A stretch of 64,000 bases of DNA from assembly GCA_963702005.1 (NCBI GenBank), contig OY969696.1:2976001-3040000 (forward strand). Direction: 5' to 3'. A program made the position numbers and the translations under genes. A model generated the notes under the pieces. It worked only from the letters and a program-made list of their open reading frames with translations, had not been told where the DNA came from and did not search any database. Source of the stretch: Candidatus Aminicenantes bacterium. GTDB lineage: Bacteria; Acidobacteriota; Aminicenantia; Aminicenantales; JAFGBC01. Shown here one piece after another: positions 41,081 through 48,529 of this stretch (positions are counted from its first letter, which is position 1; each line of letters starts with the position of its first letter).

Positions 41081-42286
41081 ATGGACCAACTTGAATGCCT
41101 CTTTTGCAGCAAGGCTTTCGTCTACGATCCCTTCTCTCCTTTCTGCCCGGACTGCCGAGAACCGCTCCTCGTCGCCTCGCCCAAAACGCCGTGCGCCTTT
41201 CATCCCGATAAAAGCCTGTCGCTCGAACGTTTCCGGGAATTCCTCCCCCTCCCCGAGATCGACCCCGGCCTCAGCCTGGGCGAAGGCTCGACTCCCCTCC
41301 TCGCCCTCGGCCGTCTCTCGAAGCGCTTCGAACTCCCCGCCCTCTACGCCAAGAACGAGACCATGAATCCGACCCAAAGCTTTAAGGATCGGGGAACGGC
41401 CGTCGCCGTCCAAAACGCGCGGCGGCTGGGATTCAAGCGGATCGGGACGGTTTCAACCGGCAACATGGCGGCGTCGACGGCCGCCTACGGGGCGCGGGCC
41501 GGGCTGGAGACTTTCGTCCTGCTTAAGGACGGGACGCCCGAAGAAAACATCCTGATGGCCGGGGTTCATCATCCTCATCTGCTCGTCATCGAGGGCGATT
41601 ATGGGCGGCTCTTCTATGAAAGCCTGTCCCTGGGCCGCAAGCATCGGATTTTCTTCATGAACTCGATCGACCCCTTCCGCATCGAAGGCTACAAGCTTAC
41701 CGGCTTCGAGATCTTCCTTCAGCTGGGAGGCCGGGTCCCCGATTACCTCGTTGTGCCCCTCAGCTCGGGCGGGCATCTCGTCGGGCTTCTCAAATCCTTC
41801 CTGGAGCTCAAAGAACTGGGGTTCGCGGACCGGATCCCCGTCGTCGTCGGCGTTCAGGCCGAGGGTTGCGCTCCTCTGGCCCGGGCCTTTGCGGCCGGAG
41901 CGTCCCGTTTCAGCGTCTTCGAAAATCCGCGGACGATCGCCCACGCTATTTCCAATCCCCATCCCCCGGCCGGGGCTCTCGTCCTGAAGATGATGAAGGA
42001 ACGGGGAGGGCTCATCACCGCGGTTTCCGACCGGGACATGCTGGAAGCCCAGGAGCTCCTCGCCGCGGATGGCCTGTTCTGTCAGCCCGACTCGGCGACG
42101 ACGCTGGCGGCGCTCATTAAGCTCGGCCGGACCAAGGCTCTCGACCCCGACGGCGCGGCCGTCCTCGTCATCACGGGAAGCGGCCTCAAGAATCTCAAGG
42201 TCTTGGAAGCTTCGCGTCTGCCGCGGCGGAGGGTGACGCTGGCGGGATTGGCGGGCGCCTTGGCCGGAAGGACGGCCGAGGTTTAA
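41081..42286 (+). CDS. thrC: Threonine synthase
   Basis: N-terminal Cys cluster, LGEGSTPL, NPTQSFKDRG (PLP lysine), STGN, ITGSGLK. Confidence 0.88.
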   Translation: MDQLECLFCSKAFVYDPFSPFCPDCREPLLVASPKTPCAFHPDKSLSLERFREFLPLPEIDPGLSLGEGSTPLLALGRLSKRFELPALYAKNETMNPTQSFKDRGTAVAVQNARRLGFKRIGTVSTGNMAASTAAYGARAGLETFVLLKDGTPEENILMAGVHHPHLLVIEGDYGRLFYESLSLGRKHRIFFMNSIDPFRIEGYKLTGFEIFLQLGGRVPDYLVVPLSSGGHLVGLLKSFLELKELGFADRIPVVVGVQAEGCAPLARAFAAGASRFSVFENPRTIAHAISNPHPPAGALVLKMMKERGGLITAVSDRDMLEAQELLAADGLFCQPDSATTLAALIKLGRTKALDPDGAAVLVITGSGLKNLKVLEASRLPRRRVTLAGLAGALAGRTAEV

Positions 42287-44100
42287 AGGAGGGGCTCGCC
42301 GGCCTTCGAGCCGGCGTTATCGTCCGGAAGCGGCCCTTTCTGCTGGAGGATGAAGCGTACCTTCTCCTCGAACTCGCGGGCTTGGACGGGCATGAAGACG
42401 ACCAGGTCGTAGCTCAGCGTGTCAAGACGGTCCTGGTCGATTTTTTCAAACTCCTTGCGGACCAGGACGATGCTCATTTGGGACCAACGGGGATCCGTCT
42501 TGATCTTTTCGCAGAGATCATAAGCGCCCGCCTTGGGGTTGTTGAGGTCCAGGATCACGGCGTCCGGCCGGAAACGGTCCATCTCGGCCGGAGCTTCCTC
42601 CCCTTCGTTGATGATGGAGAGCTCGAAATCCTTGTGCCCGAAAGCCATCCGGACGACCTTTTGAGTCAACCCGTTCGGCGTGACGAGAAGAAGCCTGTAA
42701 CGAGAGAGGAGAGTCGGCGTGGGCTCGGCAGCGGGCTCGAAGCTGGGCTCGGGGCCGGGCTCGGGAGTCCGACTCGGCGCGGGCTCGGACGGGAGCTCGA
42801 AATCCCATCGGAACTCGGGCTGGGAAAGAGGCTCCGGCTCGGGCGCCGGCCGGGCCGGCGGGGCGGGCCGCTTGGCCTCCAGGATCTCCAGAGCCGGGAA
42901 CGCGGTTCGCAGGGCCTCGGTTTTGCCCTCCGGGCGAGCCGGCTCCGCGACAGGCCGAGCCGTCTCCCGGACGGGGCCTCCGAACCAATCCGTCATGAGG
43001 CTGCCCAAGTCGTCGGCCGCATAGTGAGACCGGCCGTCTTCGTCCAGGAACCTCTCCAAGTCCTCCCTGAGGTCTTCGACCTTCTGGTGCCTGTTCCGGG
43101 GTTCGTACTCGAGGGCCTTGAGAATGGTCCTTTTCAGCGAATCGGGGGCTTCGAAACTCCGGGGGATGACCGGGATGACCTGACCGAGAAGGATCTTGCG
43201 GAACACGGCCGGATCCAATGTCTTGGGGAATATCGGTTGTCCGGTCGCCATTTCATACAGCAAGGAGCCGATCGCGTAGATGTCGGTACGGCCGTCGACC
43301 GGCTCGCCCCGAGCCTGCTGGGGAGAGAGGTAAGAGATCTTGTTGCGGAACGACGCGGGAACGGCCTGATAAAGCCTGAGGGCCGTCCGGAACAGGCTGA
43401 AATCCGTCAGCAGGACGTCCCCCTGAGGAGTCAGCAGGACGTTCGAGGGCGCGATGTTCCCATGAATGATGCCGAGCGGGATGCCGCCGGGTCCGGGAGT
43501 CGCGAAAGCCGACTCCAAAGCCAGGCAGACCTGGGTCCCGATATAGGCGAGCGCGGGAAATGGAATCTGGCGTTTGCGGGTCTTGGCGACGTTCAGGATC
43601 GCCCCGGCGTCCGTTCCTTCGATAAAATCGAAGACGAGAAAGCCGTACTCGTTGAGCTTCCCGAAGTCGAGCATGGGAACGATGTTGGGATGGGACAGCC
43701 TGGCCAGCAGCCTGGCTTCCTCGAGGAAGACGGCCATGACGTTCTCTTTCTTGAACTGGAGGCGGATCCGTTTGAGGACGCAGGGCCGTCCGTTCTGGCC
43801 TTCGGCCCGTTTGGCTTTGAAGGTTTCGGCCAAGCCGTCGTAGCCCAGCTTTTCGACCAGGATATAGCGGCCGAATTCGGGCAGGAACTCCGGCCCGCCA
43901 TCGAGCCCGTCCGGGGATCCCGGAGGCGAGGACCGGTTTCGCCCCTTCCGTTCCAGGTCCGAGAGGATGTCGGTCAGCTTGGACTCGATCTCATCGGAGA
44001 CGCCTTTGTCCTTCTTCCGGGAGACGTGCCCATCGCGGAGGACATCCGCCTTGAGCTCGTCGATGAGCTGATTCACCTTTTTGTCGATATCTTTCATCAT
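42283..44100 (-). CDS. Hanks-type Ser/Thr pseudokinase with Pro/Glu linker and C-terminal atypical receiver domain
   Basis: Kinase subdomains LGYDGLAETFKA, VLKR, HPNIV, HGNIAPSN, TDFS, YLSPQQ, TDIYAIG; C-terminal RPDAVILDLNNP...YDLCEKIK receiver fold. Confidence 0.85.
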   Translation of the reverse strand: MMKDIDKKVNQLIDELKADVLRDGHVSRKKDKGVSDEIESKLTDILSDLERKGRNRSSPPGSPDGLDGGPEFLPEFGRYILVEKLGYDGLAETFKAKRAEGQNGRPCVLKRIRLQFKKENVMAVFLEEARLLARLSHPNIVPMLDFGKLNEYGFLVFDFIEGTDAGAILNVAKTRKRQIPFPALAYIGTQVCLALESAFATPGPGGIPLGIIHGNIAPSNVLLTPQGDVLLTDFSLFRTALRLYQAVPASFRNKISYLSPQQARGEPVDGRTDIYAIGSLLYEMATGQPIFPKTLDPAVFRKILLGQVIPVIPRSFEAPDSLKRTILKALEYEPRNRHQKVEDLREDLERFLDEDGRSHYAADDLGSLMTDWFGGPVRETARPVAEPARPEGKTEALRTAFPALEILEAKRPAPPARPAPEPEPLSQPEFRWDFELPSEPAPSRTPEPGPEPSFEPAAEPTPTLLSRYRLLLVTPNGLTQKVVRMAFGHKDFELSIINEGEEAPAEMDRFRPDAVILDLNNPKAGAYDLCEKIKTDPRWSQMSIVLVRKEFEKIDQDRLDTLSYDLVVFMPVQAREFEEKVRFILQQKGPLPDDNAGSKAGEPLL

Positions 44101-44672
44101 GAGCCGCGCTTATCCATTTCGCGCCGGATCGCCTCCCCCACGATCCGCGTCAATTCGGGATAAAGACGCTCGAGGACGCGGGCGCTCAGCGACTCCAAGC
44201 CCTCCTCGGGCGGTCCTGAGACGGCGGCGGGCATGTCCGCCGGAGACGCGCTGGGGAGCGAAGCCGGCGGCCCCGCCTGGGGAACGGGCTGGCCTTCGGC
44301 CGGAATGGCGGGCGGGGGAGGAACCTCCGGCTCGATGCGGATGATATCGGATGCCGCCGACCGGGCCGCTCCGGCGCCGGGGGCGAGGACCATCAGGCAG
44401 AAATCCTGGGCGTTGGCCACGAAGAAGCTCAAGGTGATCCGGAGCTTCCGGTCCTCGGTCCGGAGCGAAACCTCCTTGATCTTCTCCAGCCCCAAGGTTT
44501 CTTGGACGCTGTGGATCGTCTGCTGGAGCGGGAAGGCGAAGGCGGACAGGACCTCGGGATCGTACATTTCCCCCCGGGCGTCGACGACCAGGCCGTCTCT
44601 GTCGACGACGACGGCCTGATGGAGCTTCCCGTCCCGAATCATGTCTTCGACCGTCTTGGAGATGAATTTCAC
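44097..44672 (-). CDS. Roadblock/LC7 domain protein with Pro-rich linker and helical C-terminal tail
   Basis: AVVVDRDGLVV roadblock hairpin; tail VLERLYPELTRIVGEAIRREMDK; 4-bp overlaps on both sides. Confidence 0.75.
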   Translation of the reverse strand: MKFISKTVEDMIRDGKLHQAVVVDRDGLVVDARGEMYDPEVLSAFAFPLQQTIHSVQETLGLEKIKEVSLRTEDRKLRITLSFFVANAQDFCLMVLAPGAGAARSAASDIIRIEPEVPPPPAIPAEGQPVPQAGPPASLPSASPADMPAAVSGPPEEGLESLSARVLERLYPELTRIVGEAIRREMDKRGS

Positions 44673-45247
44673 AGCCTCGCCTCCTGTTCCAGACGCTCCA
44701 GCAAACGCCGGACCATGACGATGAAGGACTCGCGGAGGTTGATCCCCTTGAGGGCGCTAACCTCGAAGGCCGGGTAGCCGTTGAGCCCGAGCAGCTTGCC
44801 CAGTTCGTCGGCCGGGTAAGTGTCCTCGAGGTCGATTTTATTGTAGAGGACGATGATCTCGGACTGGCGGAGCTTTTCGATGTTATCGAGGTAACGGTTG
44901 AATTCGACGACGAATTCCCGGTTGTGCTCGAGCTCCTTCTTCTGACAGTCGACGACGAAGAAGATGCCGTCGGCGTCCTCGAACAGCATCCGGCGCGTGC
45001 TGAGATAGTAGTCCTGGCCGGTGGCCGTGAACAGGCGGACGACGATGTAGGTGCTGATCTGGATCGGGGTGAAATCGAAAAGGAGGGTCTGGCCGAACGA
45101 GGTTTCGATGGACTTGATCTCGCTCGTCATCTTCATGTCCTTGGGGATGACGTTCTGGTACAGCCACCTCAGGCATGTCGTCTTCCCGGCCAAGGCCGTG
45201 CCGAAGAAGAGGATCTTGAAGTAGATCTTGCTGCCGTAGGTCTTCAC
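44669..45247 (-). CDS. MglA-family small Ras-like GTPase (192 aa)
   Basis: GTG start overlapping the upstream stop (GTGA); KILFFGTALAGKTT, TLLFDF, FTATGQ, DGIFFVVD, NKID, SAL. Confidence 0.9.
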   Translation of the reverse strand: MKTYGSKIYFKILFFGTALAGKTTCLRWLYQNVIPKDMKMTSEIKSIETSFGQTLLFDFTPIQISTYIVVRLFTATGQDYYLSTRRMLFEDADGIFFVVDCQKKELEHNREFVVEFNRYLDNIEKLRQSEIIVLYNKIDLEDTYPADELGKLLGLNGYPAFEVSALKGINLRESFIVMVRRLLERLEQEARL

Positions 45248-45702
45248 GAGCCTTCCTTCTCGAACCTGGACAGGATGTCGGCGATGCTCCGGCTGTCGGG
45301 AAGCCGGAACTTCATCTCCTTGACCATCTCCTCGCGGATTTCCATGGTGTCCTGCATGATCTTGGTGATGGCGTCGATGGCCCGCTTGGCCTCGAGCCGG
45401 ATCATCCCGATGTAGGCGTTCTTGCCGGCGATGATCGTCAGGAGACCCCGCGGCATCCGGTTCTGGCAAAGCTTGAGGTCCCCGTACTCGACGATGATGC
45501 TGTCGAGTTTTTGCATGAGCTCCGTTCCGACCTGGGCGTAGGAGTTGTAGCAGGCGGCCAATAGGGCCCCCAGGTCCTCCGATTTCATGTCGAACTGGCC
45601 GGCGACCTCTATCGGAATGCCGTCGATGTCGATCAGGATGACCCCGACGACCTCGGGCACGCGCTTCATGATCCCGTCGATGATTTCTTTGATGTTGGCC
45701 AT
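45244..45702 (-). CDS. Roadblock/LC7 (MglB/MglC-like) protein with C-terminal extension
   Basis: VVGVILIDIDGIPI, LGALLA, IIVEYG, GMIRLEAKRA. Confidence 0.9.
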   Translation of the reverse strand: MANIKEIIDGIMKRVPEVVGVILIDIDGIPIEVAGQFDMKSEDLGALLAACYNSYAQVGTELMQKLDSIIVEYGDLKLCQNRMPRGLLTIIAGKNAYIGMIRLEAKRAIDAITKIMQDTMEIREEMVKEMKFRLPDSRSIADILSRFEKEGS

Positions 45703-45720: not shown

Positions 45721-46800
45721 TCAGGGGGCCGGAGCTTTCCCGGCGGTCTTCAACAACTGATCCAGCGATTCCTCGACTTTGAAGCGGACCATGAGCGGGT
45801 TGGGTCCGGCTTCCAGGACAAATCCAAAGACGATGGCGTGAACGCAGACAAGGATATTGACGTGTCTCGTGTTGATTTCGATGTACTTGAGGGGGCCTGA
45901 CCGTAGCGCCCCGCGCGGGATGCTCCCGACCGACTGGACGACGCGGAGGAAGTTTTGGGAGGGGAAGTTGATGTCCCGGTACTTCGCATAGCCGACCAGG
46001 TCCCCCCCGTCGAACAGGACAGCCAGGTAGAGCTCCTTGACGCTCGACATCTCCTTGAGAAACTCGACGATCTCGGGGACCGTTTCCCGGATATAGGGGG
46101 ATAGATTCATCCGCCGTTCCTTGGCCCCGATGGCCAGGATCTTGGCCAGGGTCCGCTCCCGGACGTTGAGCATCTCGGAGACATAGGACTGGGTCAGCGA
46201 GCCGGACGATTCGATCTCGTTGAGCATGGCCTGGAAGGCGAGGTGGACCTCGCTCTGCTTGAGCTGGACCTTGAACTCCTTGACCCCTTCGCTGTTGTCC
46301 CTCATCTCCTGGATGAGCCGCTGCTCAATGAAGAGATCCTCGGGAAGAGGGTCCAGGAAATACAGGGTCCCATCGGCGAAGGAAAAGACGTCCTTGACGC
46401 GGAGGGAGTCGTCCTCCCACTCCTCCCGGGTGTGGCTGGTCGTCGCCATCCAGCCGAGGGGAAGGACGGACAGGACGCTTTTCAGGATGGCGGGCTCGGC
46501 CGCGAAGTAGATGAGCTGAATCGGCGGAGCGCCCAACTCCTCTTCCGCGAAGGACAGCTCGAAAGCCTCCCGCTGGGCTTCCGGCTCCTTGGTCTCGATC
46601 AACTTGGCCCCCTTGATGTAGCGGGCGTCCTTGGGGATAGCGCCGCAGAGAACGAACGTCCGGTACTGGGGGATATTATACCTCCACAGCGATAAAAGGC
46701 TGTTGGCGGATTCGACGTTCGGGGCCTGGATGACGATCCGATTCCGATACCAGATGGCGGCCAGCAGGGCGGCTTCCCAATTCTCCTGGAGCTTGGTCAT
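45721..46800 (-). CDS. Hypothetical 359-aa protein: alpha/beta N-terminal domain, HTH-like segment, C-terminal roadblock-like domain
   Basis: ATGA-coupled ORF within the operon; C-terminal LYLAVLFDGGDLV...LKYIEINT...FGFVL...PLMVRFKVEESLDQL follows the roadblock pattern. Domain calls made by eye. Confidence 0.65.
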   Translation of the reverse strand: MTKLQENWEAALLAAIWYRNRIVIQAPNVESANSLLSLWRYNIPQYRTFVLCGAIPKDARYIKGAKLIETKEPEAQREAFELSFAEEELGAPPIQLIYFAAEPAILKSVLSVLPLGWMATTSHTREEWEDDSLRVKDVFSFADGTLYFLDPLPEDLFIEQRLIQEMRDNSEGVKEFKVQLKQSEVHLAFQAMLNEIESSGSLTQSYVSEMLNVRERTLAKILAIGAKERRMNLSPYIRETVPEIVEFLKEMSSVKELYLAVLFDGGDLVGYAKYRDINFPSQNFLRVVQSVGSIPRGALRSGPLKYIEINTRHVNILVCVHAIVFGFVLEAGPNPLMVRFKVEESLDQLLKTAGKAPAP

Positions 46801-47201
46801 GACCTTTCCTTCCCCGGCGCCGGGAGCATGAGGGCGTCGAAGATCTCCTCGAGGGCGGGCGTGACTTCCTTGATCAGGATCTTGGCCAGGCCGACGTTGA
46901 GCTTCTTCCGTCCCAGGAGAAGGACGTGAAAACCGCGGTCGGGATGCTTATGAATGAGGAGGATGCTTTCCTGCCATTCGACCTGCATCTGATTGAGGTC
47001 TGCGGCGCCGGCGCTGATCGCGACGGCATTGGCGGCATCGATGATATCGGCGATGGAGACCAGGACTTCGCTGGGCGGCGATCCTTCGAACTTCGAGAAG
47101 AGGAGCGTTCCGTCCGGGCCAAATAGGGCGAATCCCTCCTTGTCGGCCAGGTAAGAGAGACGCTCCAGGACGAAAGCCAGCTTGGGGCTTTGGATGATCA
47201 T
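46797..47201 (-). CDS. Roadblock/LC7-like protein
   Basis: GFALFGPDGTLL, LNQMQVEW, VLLLG, NVGLAKILIKEV. Confidence 0.8.
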   Translation of the reverse strand: MIIQSPKLAFVLERLSYLADKEGFALFGPDGTLLFSKFEGSPPSEVLVSIADIIDAANAVAISAGAADLNQMQVEWQESILLIHKHPDRGFHVLLLGRKKLNVGLAKILIKEVTPALEEIFDALMLPAPGKERS

Positions 47202-47684
47202 GGTTTGGTCCCGGCCGGTCCGGGAAGGCTCTTATGTCCCGTAATAATCACGATATCCGCCTTGAGCTCCGAGACTTCCATATCCTCCAGCCCGATCGTC
47301 CGGGAGGCGTCGAGAACGGTCCGGCAGCCTCTATCCCGGGCGAAGCCTAAAAGCGCCGGCGCATCGTTGACCGCTCCCGCTGCATTTGAAGCGTGATTGA
47401 GAACGGCCACCCGGGGAGTCCGCTTCTCGACGGCTTCCCGCCAGAAGATCCTCACGGACCCTGCCTTCGACGTTGCAGGGAACGATCTCCAGCTGAACGC
47501 CGTTCCCCGCGAACCGGTCAAGGGGCCTGAGGACCGAATTATGCTCCAAAGCCGTAGTCAAGACAAGGCCCTTCTCCGCCGCCACCTCCTCTGCCATGCC
47601 GGGGGGCTTGGGAAAAGACGTGGCGGCGTTATTCAGGTAGACGGGAGCGCGCTCGGGAACGGACTGAATCCCGTCCTCGCCCAA
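47198..47684 (-). pseudogene. Class V aminotransferase (cysteine desulfurase family) remnant
   Basis: YLNNAATSFPKPP joined almost directly to TTALEHNSVLRPL (internal deletion), then a frameshift, NHASN, LDAS, TGHKSLPGPAGT and a premature end. Confidence 0.85.
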
Positions 47685-47852: not shown

Positions 47853-48224
47853 TCATCCCGTGAGGGCGTCCTCGAACTTGTCGACTATTTCAGGCAGGAT
47901 GACGTTGAGCAGGAGTCCGGTCGCGATCTTCTTGGTATCGACGAAAAGCCCCCACTGGTACCCGTCCATGGGGATGATCAGAAACATCTTCGAGTCCGCC
48001 AAATCAACGATGTAGTACCTGCCCAGGAGCGGGAAATTGCTCCCCTTCAAGGACTTCGTCAAAAAATTCGTGACCTGGTTGAAGAGGGCGCAGGCTTTGG
48101 GCTGGGAGTTGATTCCGTAAATGCTCTGCCCGTCCGCGGATGAATAGATATCCGTGGAGAGAATGCCGTCTCCCAGATCCTCCTTGAGCTTGTCGACCGC
48201 TTCTTTCATTTTCTTAATGTTCAT
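47853..48224 (-). CDS. Roadblock-like protein (123 aa)
   Basis: From ATG 48224: LKEDLGDGILSTDIYSSADGQSI...ACALFNQV...YYIVDL...GLLLNVILP, consistent with the roadblock alpha-beta2-alpha-beta3-alpha order. Confidence 0.7.
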   Translation of the reverse strand: MNIKKMKEAVDKLKEDLGDGILSTDIYSSADGQSIYGINSQPKACALFNQVTNFLTKSLKGSNFPLLGRYYIVDLADSKMFLIIPMDGYQWGLFVDTKKIATGLLLNVILPEIVDKFEDALTG

Positions 48225-48529
48225 AAGTTTCCACCCATATCTGTTCTCGGAAATCGCGCCTTGGACTTCGGAATTAGCGCTTCCTCGCCTTCGTTTCCAC
48301 CTCCTCAGCGCTGAAGTTCTTCGTTTCATCCATGAAAAAACGGCCTTTCATTGCTTCGCTCTTCTATTTTTGGGTCCCCGATCAAGGGGGTCAATCACCC
48401 CTCTCGGTGAATTCAGGGGTGAAATTCTCCTCTTTGCCGATGAGATTTCGACTCCGCCGGCATCCCCCTCCCTCCCCCGAACGTCTAACCCTTGGAAACC
48501 CGAAATCCGGGTTCGAGCCGGGTGCCTGA

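Follow-up and report, generated by a model that had tools for sequence, protein, structure and literature searches.

The gene considered here occupies 45721..46800 on the minus strand of a 64,000-nucleotide stretch of Candidatus Aminicenantes DNA (contig OY969696.1, positions 2,976,001 to 3,040,000; hereafter the window) and encodes a protein of 359 amino acids, referred to below as the target. An earlier note, written from the sequence alone, had described it as a possible bacterial DENN-like protein with helix-turn-helix (HTH) and roadblock domains beside a small GTPase. The open reading frame (ORF) is real and carries every sequence string quoted in that note. It stands second in a compact operon on the minus strand, which runs RoblA, target, RoblB, small GTPase, RoblC and Ser/Thr kinase-receiver, and overlaps of 4 bases were found at the RoblA/target, RoblB/GTPase, GTPase/RoblC and RoblC/kinase junctions. 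Both neighbours that the note had named were recovered: the small GTPase is encoded in the same operon and is of the MglA type, and the coupled upstream roadblock-like gene is RoblA, the stop of which overlaps the target start and the profile of which matches roadblock structures. The target thus belongs to a predicted co-transcribed unit that further comprises the three stand-alone roadblock genes, the MglA-family GTPase gene and the Ser/Thr kinase-receiver gene. The order RoblA-target-RoblB-GTPase-RoblC was retained in all seven related loci (L001-L006 and L009), in which identity to the target falls to 39-44%, and the kinase gene follows RoblC in each of the four loci that reach far enough (L002, L003, L004 and L006). 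The parts of the target and the other genes of the region are as follows.

45721..46800, minus strand: the target, 359 amino acids, a motif-less P-loop-like domain, a helical segment and a roadblock domain (ORF and motifs)
46291..46800, minus strand: N-domain of the target, residues 1-170, three-layer alpha/beta with P-loop-NTPase-like topology and no Walker A (structure model and fold matches)
46096..46290, minus strand: helical segment of the target, residues 171-235, a long helix and an HTH-like helix pair (predicted secondary structure)
45736..46083, minus strand: roadblock/LC7-fold domain of the target, residues 240-355 (model and structure comparison)
46797..47201, minus strand: RoblA, roadblock protein, 134 amino acids (profile against roadblock structures, 7f8m, E 3.3e-4)
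45244..45702, minus strand: RoblB, roadblock/MAPKK1_Int-like protein, 152 amino acids, with a C-terminal helical extension (Pfam MAPKK1_Int 8.6e-08, Robl_LC7 8e-05)
44669..45247, minus strand: MglA-type small GTPase, 192 amino acids (Pfam Arf 2.9e-11, Ras 7.1e-09, Gtr1_RagA 2.3e-07)
44097..44672, minus strand: RoblC, 191 amino acids, roadblock domain and Pro/Ala-rich tail (Pfam Robl_LC7 3.3e-06)
42283..44100, minus strand: Ser/Thr protein kinase (residues 77-360) with a C-terminal receiver-like domain (residues ~469-589), 605 amino acids (Pfam Pkinase 7e-23)
47853..48329, minus strand: small conserved upstream gene, probable start near 48224, 123 amino acids (a homologue lies directly ahead of RoblA in L002)

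The target and the operon GTPase

The full-length AlphaFold2 (AF2) model of the target (predicted local distance difference test, pLDDT, 73.8; predicted template-modelling score, pTM, 0.64) comprises an alpha/beta domain at residues ~1-166, a long helix at 171-199, an HTH-like helix pair at 204-227 and a domain of alpha-beta-beta-alpha-beta-beta-beta-alpha order at 240-355. The last of these has the roadblock fold in the model, and the roadblock-like C-terminus proposed earlier is thereby borne out. There is no N-terminal longin (uDENN) domain; the chain opens with the alpha/beta core and its only longin/roadblock fold is C-terminal. When modelled by itself from an alignment of 53 sequences (residues 1-192), the N-domain reached a pLDDT of 92.3 and a pTM of 0.88. 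The would-be Walker A position (residues 26-33, between a strand at 22-25 and a helix at 29-38) is variable, with no conserved G, K or T.

Over the 53 members conservation peaks at residues 41-60, 81-120 and 181-200 and is weakest in the roadblock part. Positions with at least 80% identity include R19, P44, R47, G53, P56, E86, E87, P93, Q95, G116, W117, E159, Q179, K181, E197, E209 and E228. Most of the positions invariant throughout the family fall in the N-domain (R19, P44, R47, G53, E86, G116, W117 and E159), and Q179, K181, E197, E209 and E228 are near-invariant in the helical segment (171-235). The conserved residues are mostly charged or polar, which suggests that the N-terminal part presents a conserved surface for binding or catalysis and is not a passive spacer.

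The profile of the operon GTPase matches MglA in the PDB at E 4.9e-28, as against 4.2e-11 for the best Arf. Its motifs are GTALAGKT (G1), the MglA-type TATGQ (G3) and NKID (G4), TATGQ being invariant in all seven sequences, and its GTG start at 45247 overlaps the RoblB stop. A GTPase of the TxxGQ type, with Pfam roadblock matches in two neighbours and a profile match in the third, is what is expected of an MglA/roadblock switch. In an alignment to MglA of Myxococcus xanthus, a Gln (SFGQTLLFDF) stands opposite the intrinsic arginine finger (TDRTLFFDF) and is likewise invariant (7/7), so that the arginine finger next to the G2 threonine that marks MglA group 1 is missing. Groups 2-5 of MglA have been reported to be devoid of an intrinsic arginine finger (PMC4316618). 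Elsewhere in the genome a second MglA-like protein (E 7.7e-22) has the canonical TERTFFFD and TVPGQ, and the operon GTPase is therefore best regarded as an extra, specialised paralogue. The second gene (G000:C1:1507498-1508358; L044:2999-3859, plus strand) encodes a charged C-terminal extension of ~90 residues, and among the listed ORFs of at least 110 amino acids none beside it resembles a roadblock gene.

On balance, we think that the target probably regulates a specialised MglA-type GTPase switch as one of its non-catalytic subunits, docking via its roadblock domain. Roadblock and longin domains are described as platforms for GTPases (PMC3521125). The roadblock domain of the target would pair with a stand-alone roadblock protein, most simply the translationally coupled RoblA, and the paired roadblocks could offer the GTPase a Ragulator/MglB-like docking platform. 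Contact of the motif-less P-loop-like domain with the GTPase or an effector might then tune GTP hydrolysis or nucleotide exchange, with the kinase-receiver protein supplying the input. As the operon GTPase is without an arginine finger of its own, one might be provided in trans, with R19 and R47 as the candidate residues. By analogy, the architecture and context resemble a longin/roadblock-plus-DENN regulator of the folliculin type and the roadblock/GTPase/DENN operon of Asgard archaea considered below. A predicted complex of the target with the GTPase, GTP and Mg scored 0.00 in two runs without controls, a value that has no bearing either way.

Fold of the N-domain and alternative readings

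The N-domain fits the fold of the C-terminal ATPase domain of the PilT/VirB11/FlaI class (fold-match figures: FlaI 10.0, PilB 9.0, HP0525 8.7, CpaF 8.6). Foldseek with the N-domain model (1-192) returned nothing at E<=0.001; the same class was again the best match among the top 999 chains, and the only rows with a low root-mean-square deviation (rmsd) were GspE, FlaI, PilB and VirB11 ATPases, at a TMq of ~0.4. DENN structures are therefore not the closest known fold. However, three distinct DENN structures lay within the top 16 of 48,161 chains. DENN folds are few in the PDB, and such a ranking would not be expected from generic P-loop resemblance. Residues 5..235 of the full-length model, helical segment included, superpose on DENND10, and the matched chain ranges presumably correspond to the C-terminal domain in the ATPases and to the cDENN/dDENN lobes in the DENN structures. 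The DENN core has been defined as a three-layer alpha/beta domain of minimal P-loop-NTPase topology without nucleotide-binding residues (PMC3521125), a description that the N-domain fits.

By sequence or profile, no link of the target to DENN proteins or to secretion ATPases was obtained. The target belongs to no Pfam, NCBIfam or PADLOC family and has no match to a DENN-type Pfam family at E<=1; the Pfam DENN model PF02141 has no match anywhere in the 4.3-Mb genome at E<=10. When the 53 members were scanned singly against Pfam, no family was matched by more than three of them, and neither DENN, T2SSE nor roadblock occurred among the 25 families shown of 39. The 53-member profile, searched against a set of 5.8 billion proteins at E<=10 with the 8000 top candidates scored, recovered only family members (17 rows), while the target profile against PDB sequences gave four rows at chance level (E 0.34-0.54) and a search of the ESM Atlas with residues 1-235 no usable match. 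When the N-domain profile was aligned by hhalign with the C-terminal domains of 40 T2SSE proteins, drawn from the genome of the window and from 12 relatives, the probability was 0.1% (E 0.42). By eye, 'YR..V.CG..PK', 'PPIQ..YF' and 'GW.ATT' had been taken for the PilT-type Asp box, Walker B and His box; hhalign did not support this and the assignment was withdrawn. A pseudo-GTPase, that is, a Rag-like G domain with a roadblock domain, was dropped as there was no small GTPase among the 50 N-domain matches listed, although absence from that list is not proof; a Gtr1-Gtr2 match of the full-length model had an rmsd of 20.

One explanation for these matches is that the target is a true DENN homologue, in which the N-domain and helical segment would be a bacterial cDENN plus dDENN, related to the DENN protein of the Asgard operon, fused to a C-terminal roadblock domain and having guanine-nucleotide exchange factor (GEF) or GTPase-activating protein (GAP) activity on the operon GTPase. 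The three DENN structures near the top of the ranking speak for this, but we consider it unlikely, given that no DENN match was found in the target, in the genome or in the Pfam families shown for the 53 members, and that ATPases outscore the DENN structures. The ATPase matches could instead mean that the N-domain is the dead C-terminal ATPase domain of a PilT/VirB11/FlaI-class motor, by which a secretion or type IV pilus motor would be connected to an MglA-type switch; such a protein might bind or cap PilB/PilT hexamers while its roadblock domain receives the GTPase signal. Even with that class as the best structural match, this seems to us quite improbable: the hhalign alignment to the T2SSE domains was out of register as well as insignificant, Pfam gave no T2SSE signal, none of Walker A, Asp box, Walker B and His box can be recognised, the operon has no pilus or secretion gene, and the ATPase segment that was matched (chain 246-502) exceeds the N-domain by ~85 residues. 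The earlier note had proposed that its idea would fall if the N-terminal part matched a non-DENN fold such as a degenerate P-loop, and on raw scores the ATPases do win. Since the DENN core is itself P-loop-like without nucleotide-binding residues, a degenerate P-loop cannot cleanly separate a DENN from an ATPase origin. The suggestion that the target is DENN-like is thus partly supported: it holds for the modelled fold class and the gene context, but not for membership, as the target is not demonstrably DENN and common descent is not established.

The helical segment provides a further possibility, namely that an HTH at residues 202-227 binds DNA as the output of the GTPase/kinase pathway, in the manner of the receiver-winged-HTH proteins beside group 3 MglA (PMC4316618). 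A helix-turn-helix-like pair is indeed predicted, as the earlier note had it, and weak Pfam matches were obtained to HTH_20 (0.083), HTH_IclR (0.085) and HTH_51 (0.13), each in one of the 53 members; no HTH family reached significance. Across the 53 members, residues 200-235 carry a net charge of between -8 and +7 (mean -1.1). Members of the Aminicenantes-type clade have a basic segment (up to +7), those of distant clades a strongly acidic one (down to -8), and DNA binding is therefore not a conserved trait of the family. As it also superposes within the helical lobe of DENND10, segment 200-235 is more likely to be a structural helical lobe, and a transcription-factor output is in our opinion very improbable.

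To return to regulation of the operon GTPase by the target, several points weigh against it. The mechanism would be read from context and a predicted fold; the best structural matches of the N-domain are ATPases and not GTPase regulators, and no sequence or profile method ties it to any family. The basic helical segment leaves room for nucleic-acid binding in the Aminicenantes-type clade. In addition, no small GTPase lies beside the family gene at L012, the informative one of the two metagenome loci obtained for distant members. The L012 member, 42% identical to the subset query that found it, follows a roadblock gene (Robl_LC7 6.1e-08) with a 4-base overlap and is itself followed by a 449-amino-acid protein and a hybrid sensor kinase. 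The 449-amino-acid protein (L012:7076-8425, plus strand) combines an AAA+ ATPase domain of the DnaA type (Bac_DnaA 2.8e-37) with a roadblock domain at its C-terminus, a close paralogue of that of the family (hhalign 96.3%, E 1.6e-09). This indicates that roadblock domains are the means by which the family pairs with NTPases and that the partner NTPase can differ; GTPase regulation may be limited to the Aminicenantes-type clade. That the N-domain is homologous to this DnaA-type ATPase was rejected, as hhalign aligned the roadblock parts only. With one gene for an AAA+-roadblock fusion and its neighbour for a dead P-loop-roadblock fusion, the arrangement calls Rag heterodimers to mind.

Relation to described systems

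The closest described arrangement is an operon of Asgard archaea that encodes a LAMTOR1-like roadblock protein, a small GTPase and a DENN protein, for which the authors propose a folliculin-like action (Liu, Makarova, Koonin, Li et al., bioRxiv 10.1101/2020.10.19.343400). As compared by description, both systems bring together a small GTPase, one or more roadblock proteins and a DENN-fold or motif-less P-loop-like protein, and in both regulation of the GEF/GAP type is predicted. The operon in the window differs in its bacterial hosts, in the fusion of the core to a C-terminal roadblock domain, in having a Ser/Thr kinase-receiver gene and three to four additional roadblock genes, and in the absence of a Pfam DENN signal. 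Folliculin-FNIP and C9orf72-SMCR8 combine longin and DENN domains and act on Rag, Arf or Rab GTPases at the roadblock platform of Ragulator. In the target the order is reversed, with the core first and the roadblock last, there is no sequence similarity to them, the GTPase is of the MglA and not the Rag type, and ATPases are the better fold matches.

Among bacterial systems, the MglA/MglB polarity module of Myxococcus and Thermus (also with MglC and RomR-RomX) is set apart by the Gln that here replaces the intrinsic arginine finger, and by the four roadblock domains, extra P-loop-like domain and eukaryotic-type kinase of the present operon. Multi-roadblock MglA loci also resemble the system. 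The actinobacterial conservon consists of the kinase CvnA, the roadblock protein CvnB, CvnC of unknown function and CvnD, an MglA-group-2 GTPase (PMC4316618). The conservon shares with the operon a kinase, a roadblock protein, an uncharacterised protein and an MglA-family GTPase without arginine finger in one conserved unit. It differs in having a membrane histidine kinase instead of a Ser/Thr kinase-receiver and CvnC instead of a three-part subunit of 359 amino acids, and the Pfam scan of the operon proteins gave no match to DUF742. In contrast to archaeal GspE (2oap) and FlaI (4ihq/4ii7), whose C-terminal ATPase domains represent the PilT/VirB11/FlaI class, the target has no N-terminal PAS-like domain and carries a roadblock fusion. 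From all of the systems compared it is distinguished by the fused subunit of a dead P-loop-like, a helical and a roadblock domain, by the eukaryotic-type kinase-receiver gene and by its bacterial hosts. No bacterial DENN-like or roadblock-fused protein of this kind was found in the titles, abstracts and passages searched, although the supplementary neighbourhood tables of PMC4316618 might list this type of operon.

We are aware of no explanation for how the core DENN fold arose. A wider interpretation, which we regard as doubtful, is that the family is a bacterial counterpart, possibly a relative, of the DENN module: a nucleotide-blind P-loop-like domain and a roadblock domain that would regulate an MglA-type GTPase without arginine finger on a multi-roadblock, Ragulator-like platform under kinase control. 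If this were true, the fact that the N-domain is as close to DENN cores as to ATPase domains of the FlaI/GspE class would suggest that the DENN fold arose from an inactivated secretion-ATPase-like prokaryotic domain outside, and perhaps before, Asgard archaea and eukaryotes. According to the Asgard preprint, no DENN protein had previously been observed outside eukaryotes, and regulators of the DENN/folliculin type, long held to be eukaryote-specific, were later extended only to Asgard archaea (bioRxiv 10.1101/2020.10.19.343400). The six soluble operon proteins offer a small, expressible system for the control of small GTPases by a roadblock platform and a dead P-loop domain, and could be used to probe the descent of the DENN fold from ATPase domains. 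Even as a mere DENN analogue, the target would be a new type of subunit for bacterial MglA/roadblock switches, wired to a eukaryotic-type kinase.

Family distribution and neighbouring genes

The target represents a rare, unnamed family of bacterial proteins. The set of 5.8 billion proteins contains 18 homologues at E<=1e-3, all of 345-365 amino acids and including one named Candidatus Aminicenantes protein. An exhaustive HMMER pass over 1.84 billion representatives gave 40 members at the same threshold, 36 of them with 336-382 amino acids and four being shorter pieces, and no longer or fused form of the family occurred among these 40 matches; the family includes roughly 30 distant clusters. 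Records of Aminicenantes, Thermodesulfobacteriota and candidate division KSB1 are the sources of the named members. The 4.3-Mb genome of the window has one copy of the gene, and full-length matches were found in only 2 of 401 sampled genomes of the phylum (the window's own included) and in 2 of 301 in a second sample centred on another carrier (the centre included). The genome that contains L001 (G406) has two full-length copies, on contigs C171 and C102 (E 1.4e-136 and 2.2e-112). L005 and L006 have identical sets of operon ORFs, yet their records are titled as an archaeal (Methanofastidiosia) and a bacterial (Aminicenantia) metagenome-assembled genome respectively; this suggests that one of the two bins contains a misassigned contig, and the pair thus provides no evidence for the family in archaea.

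Within the operon RoblB is the most conserved member, with a mean column identity of 80% (six sequences) compared with 73% for the GTPase and 42% for RoblA; RoblA has no Pfam match. Past its roadblock core RoblB has a highly conserved helical extension (residues ~100-152, IRLEAKRA...KFR.P....ILS.F) that recalls the C-terminal helix of MglB, which has been reported to be an allosteric binder of MglA (PMC6785124). The receiver-like domain at the C-terminus of the kinase scored 22.3 bits with Response_reg, below the Pfam cut-off of 30.2 bits. In relatives, the L004 kinase has receiver domains at both ends and that of L006 a receiver-like piece ahead of the kinase domain. A defence-system reading of the locus was rejected, as PADLOC matched only the kinase, with the generic PD-T4-6/MAD6 kinase models, and none of the other six proteins.

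The small upstream gene may be part of the operon in relatives. It was considered as a fifth roadblock gene (123 or 158 amino acids, depending on the start) and rejected, there being no Pfam, PDB or roadblock-profile signal. Between it and RoblA, at 47198-47684 on the minus strand, lies what is left of a class-V aminotransferase gene. It consists of a pair of short ORFs, each in a frame of its own, and of the 371 positions in the Aminotran_5 model they match only ~81-208 (E 0.034 and 2.7e-12). In L002 the small gene and RoblA are only ~49 bases apart.
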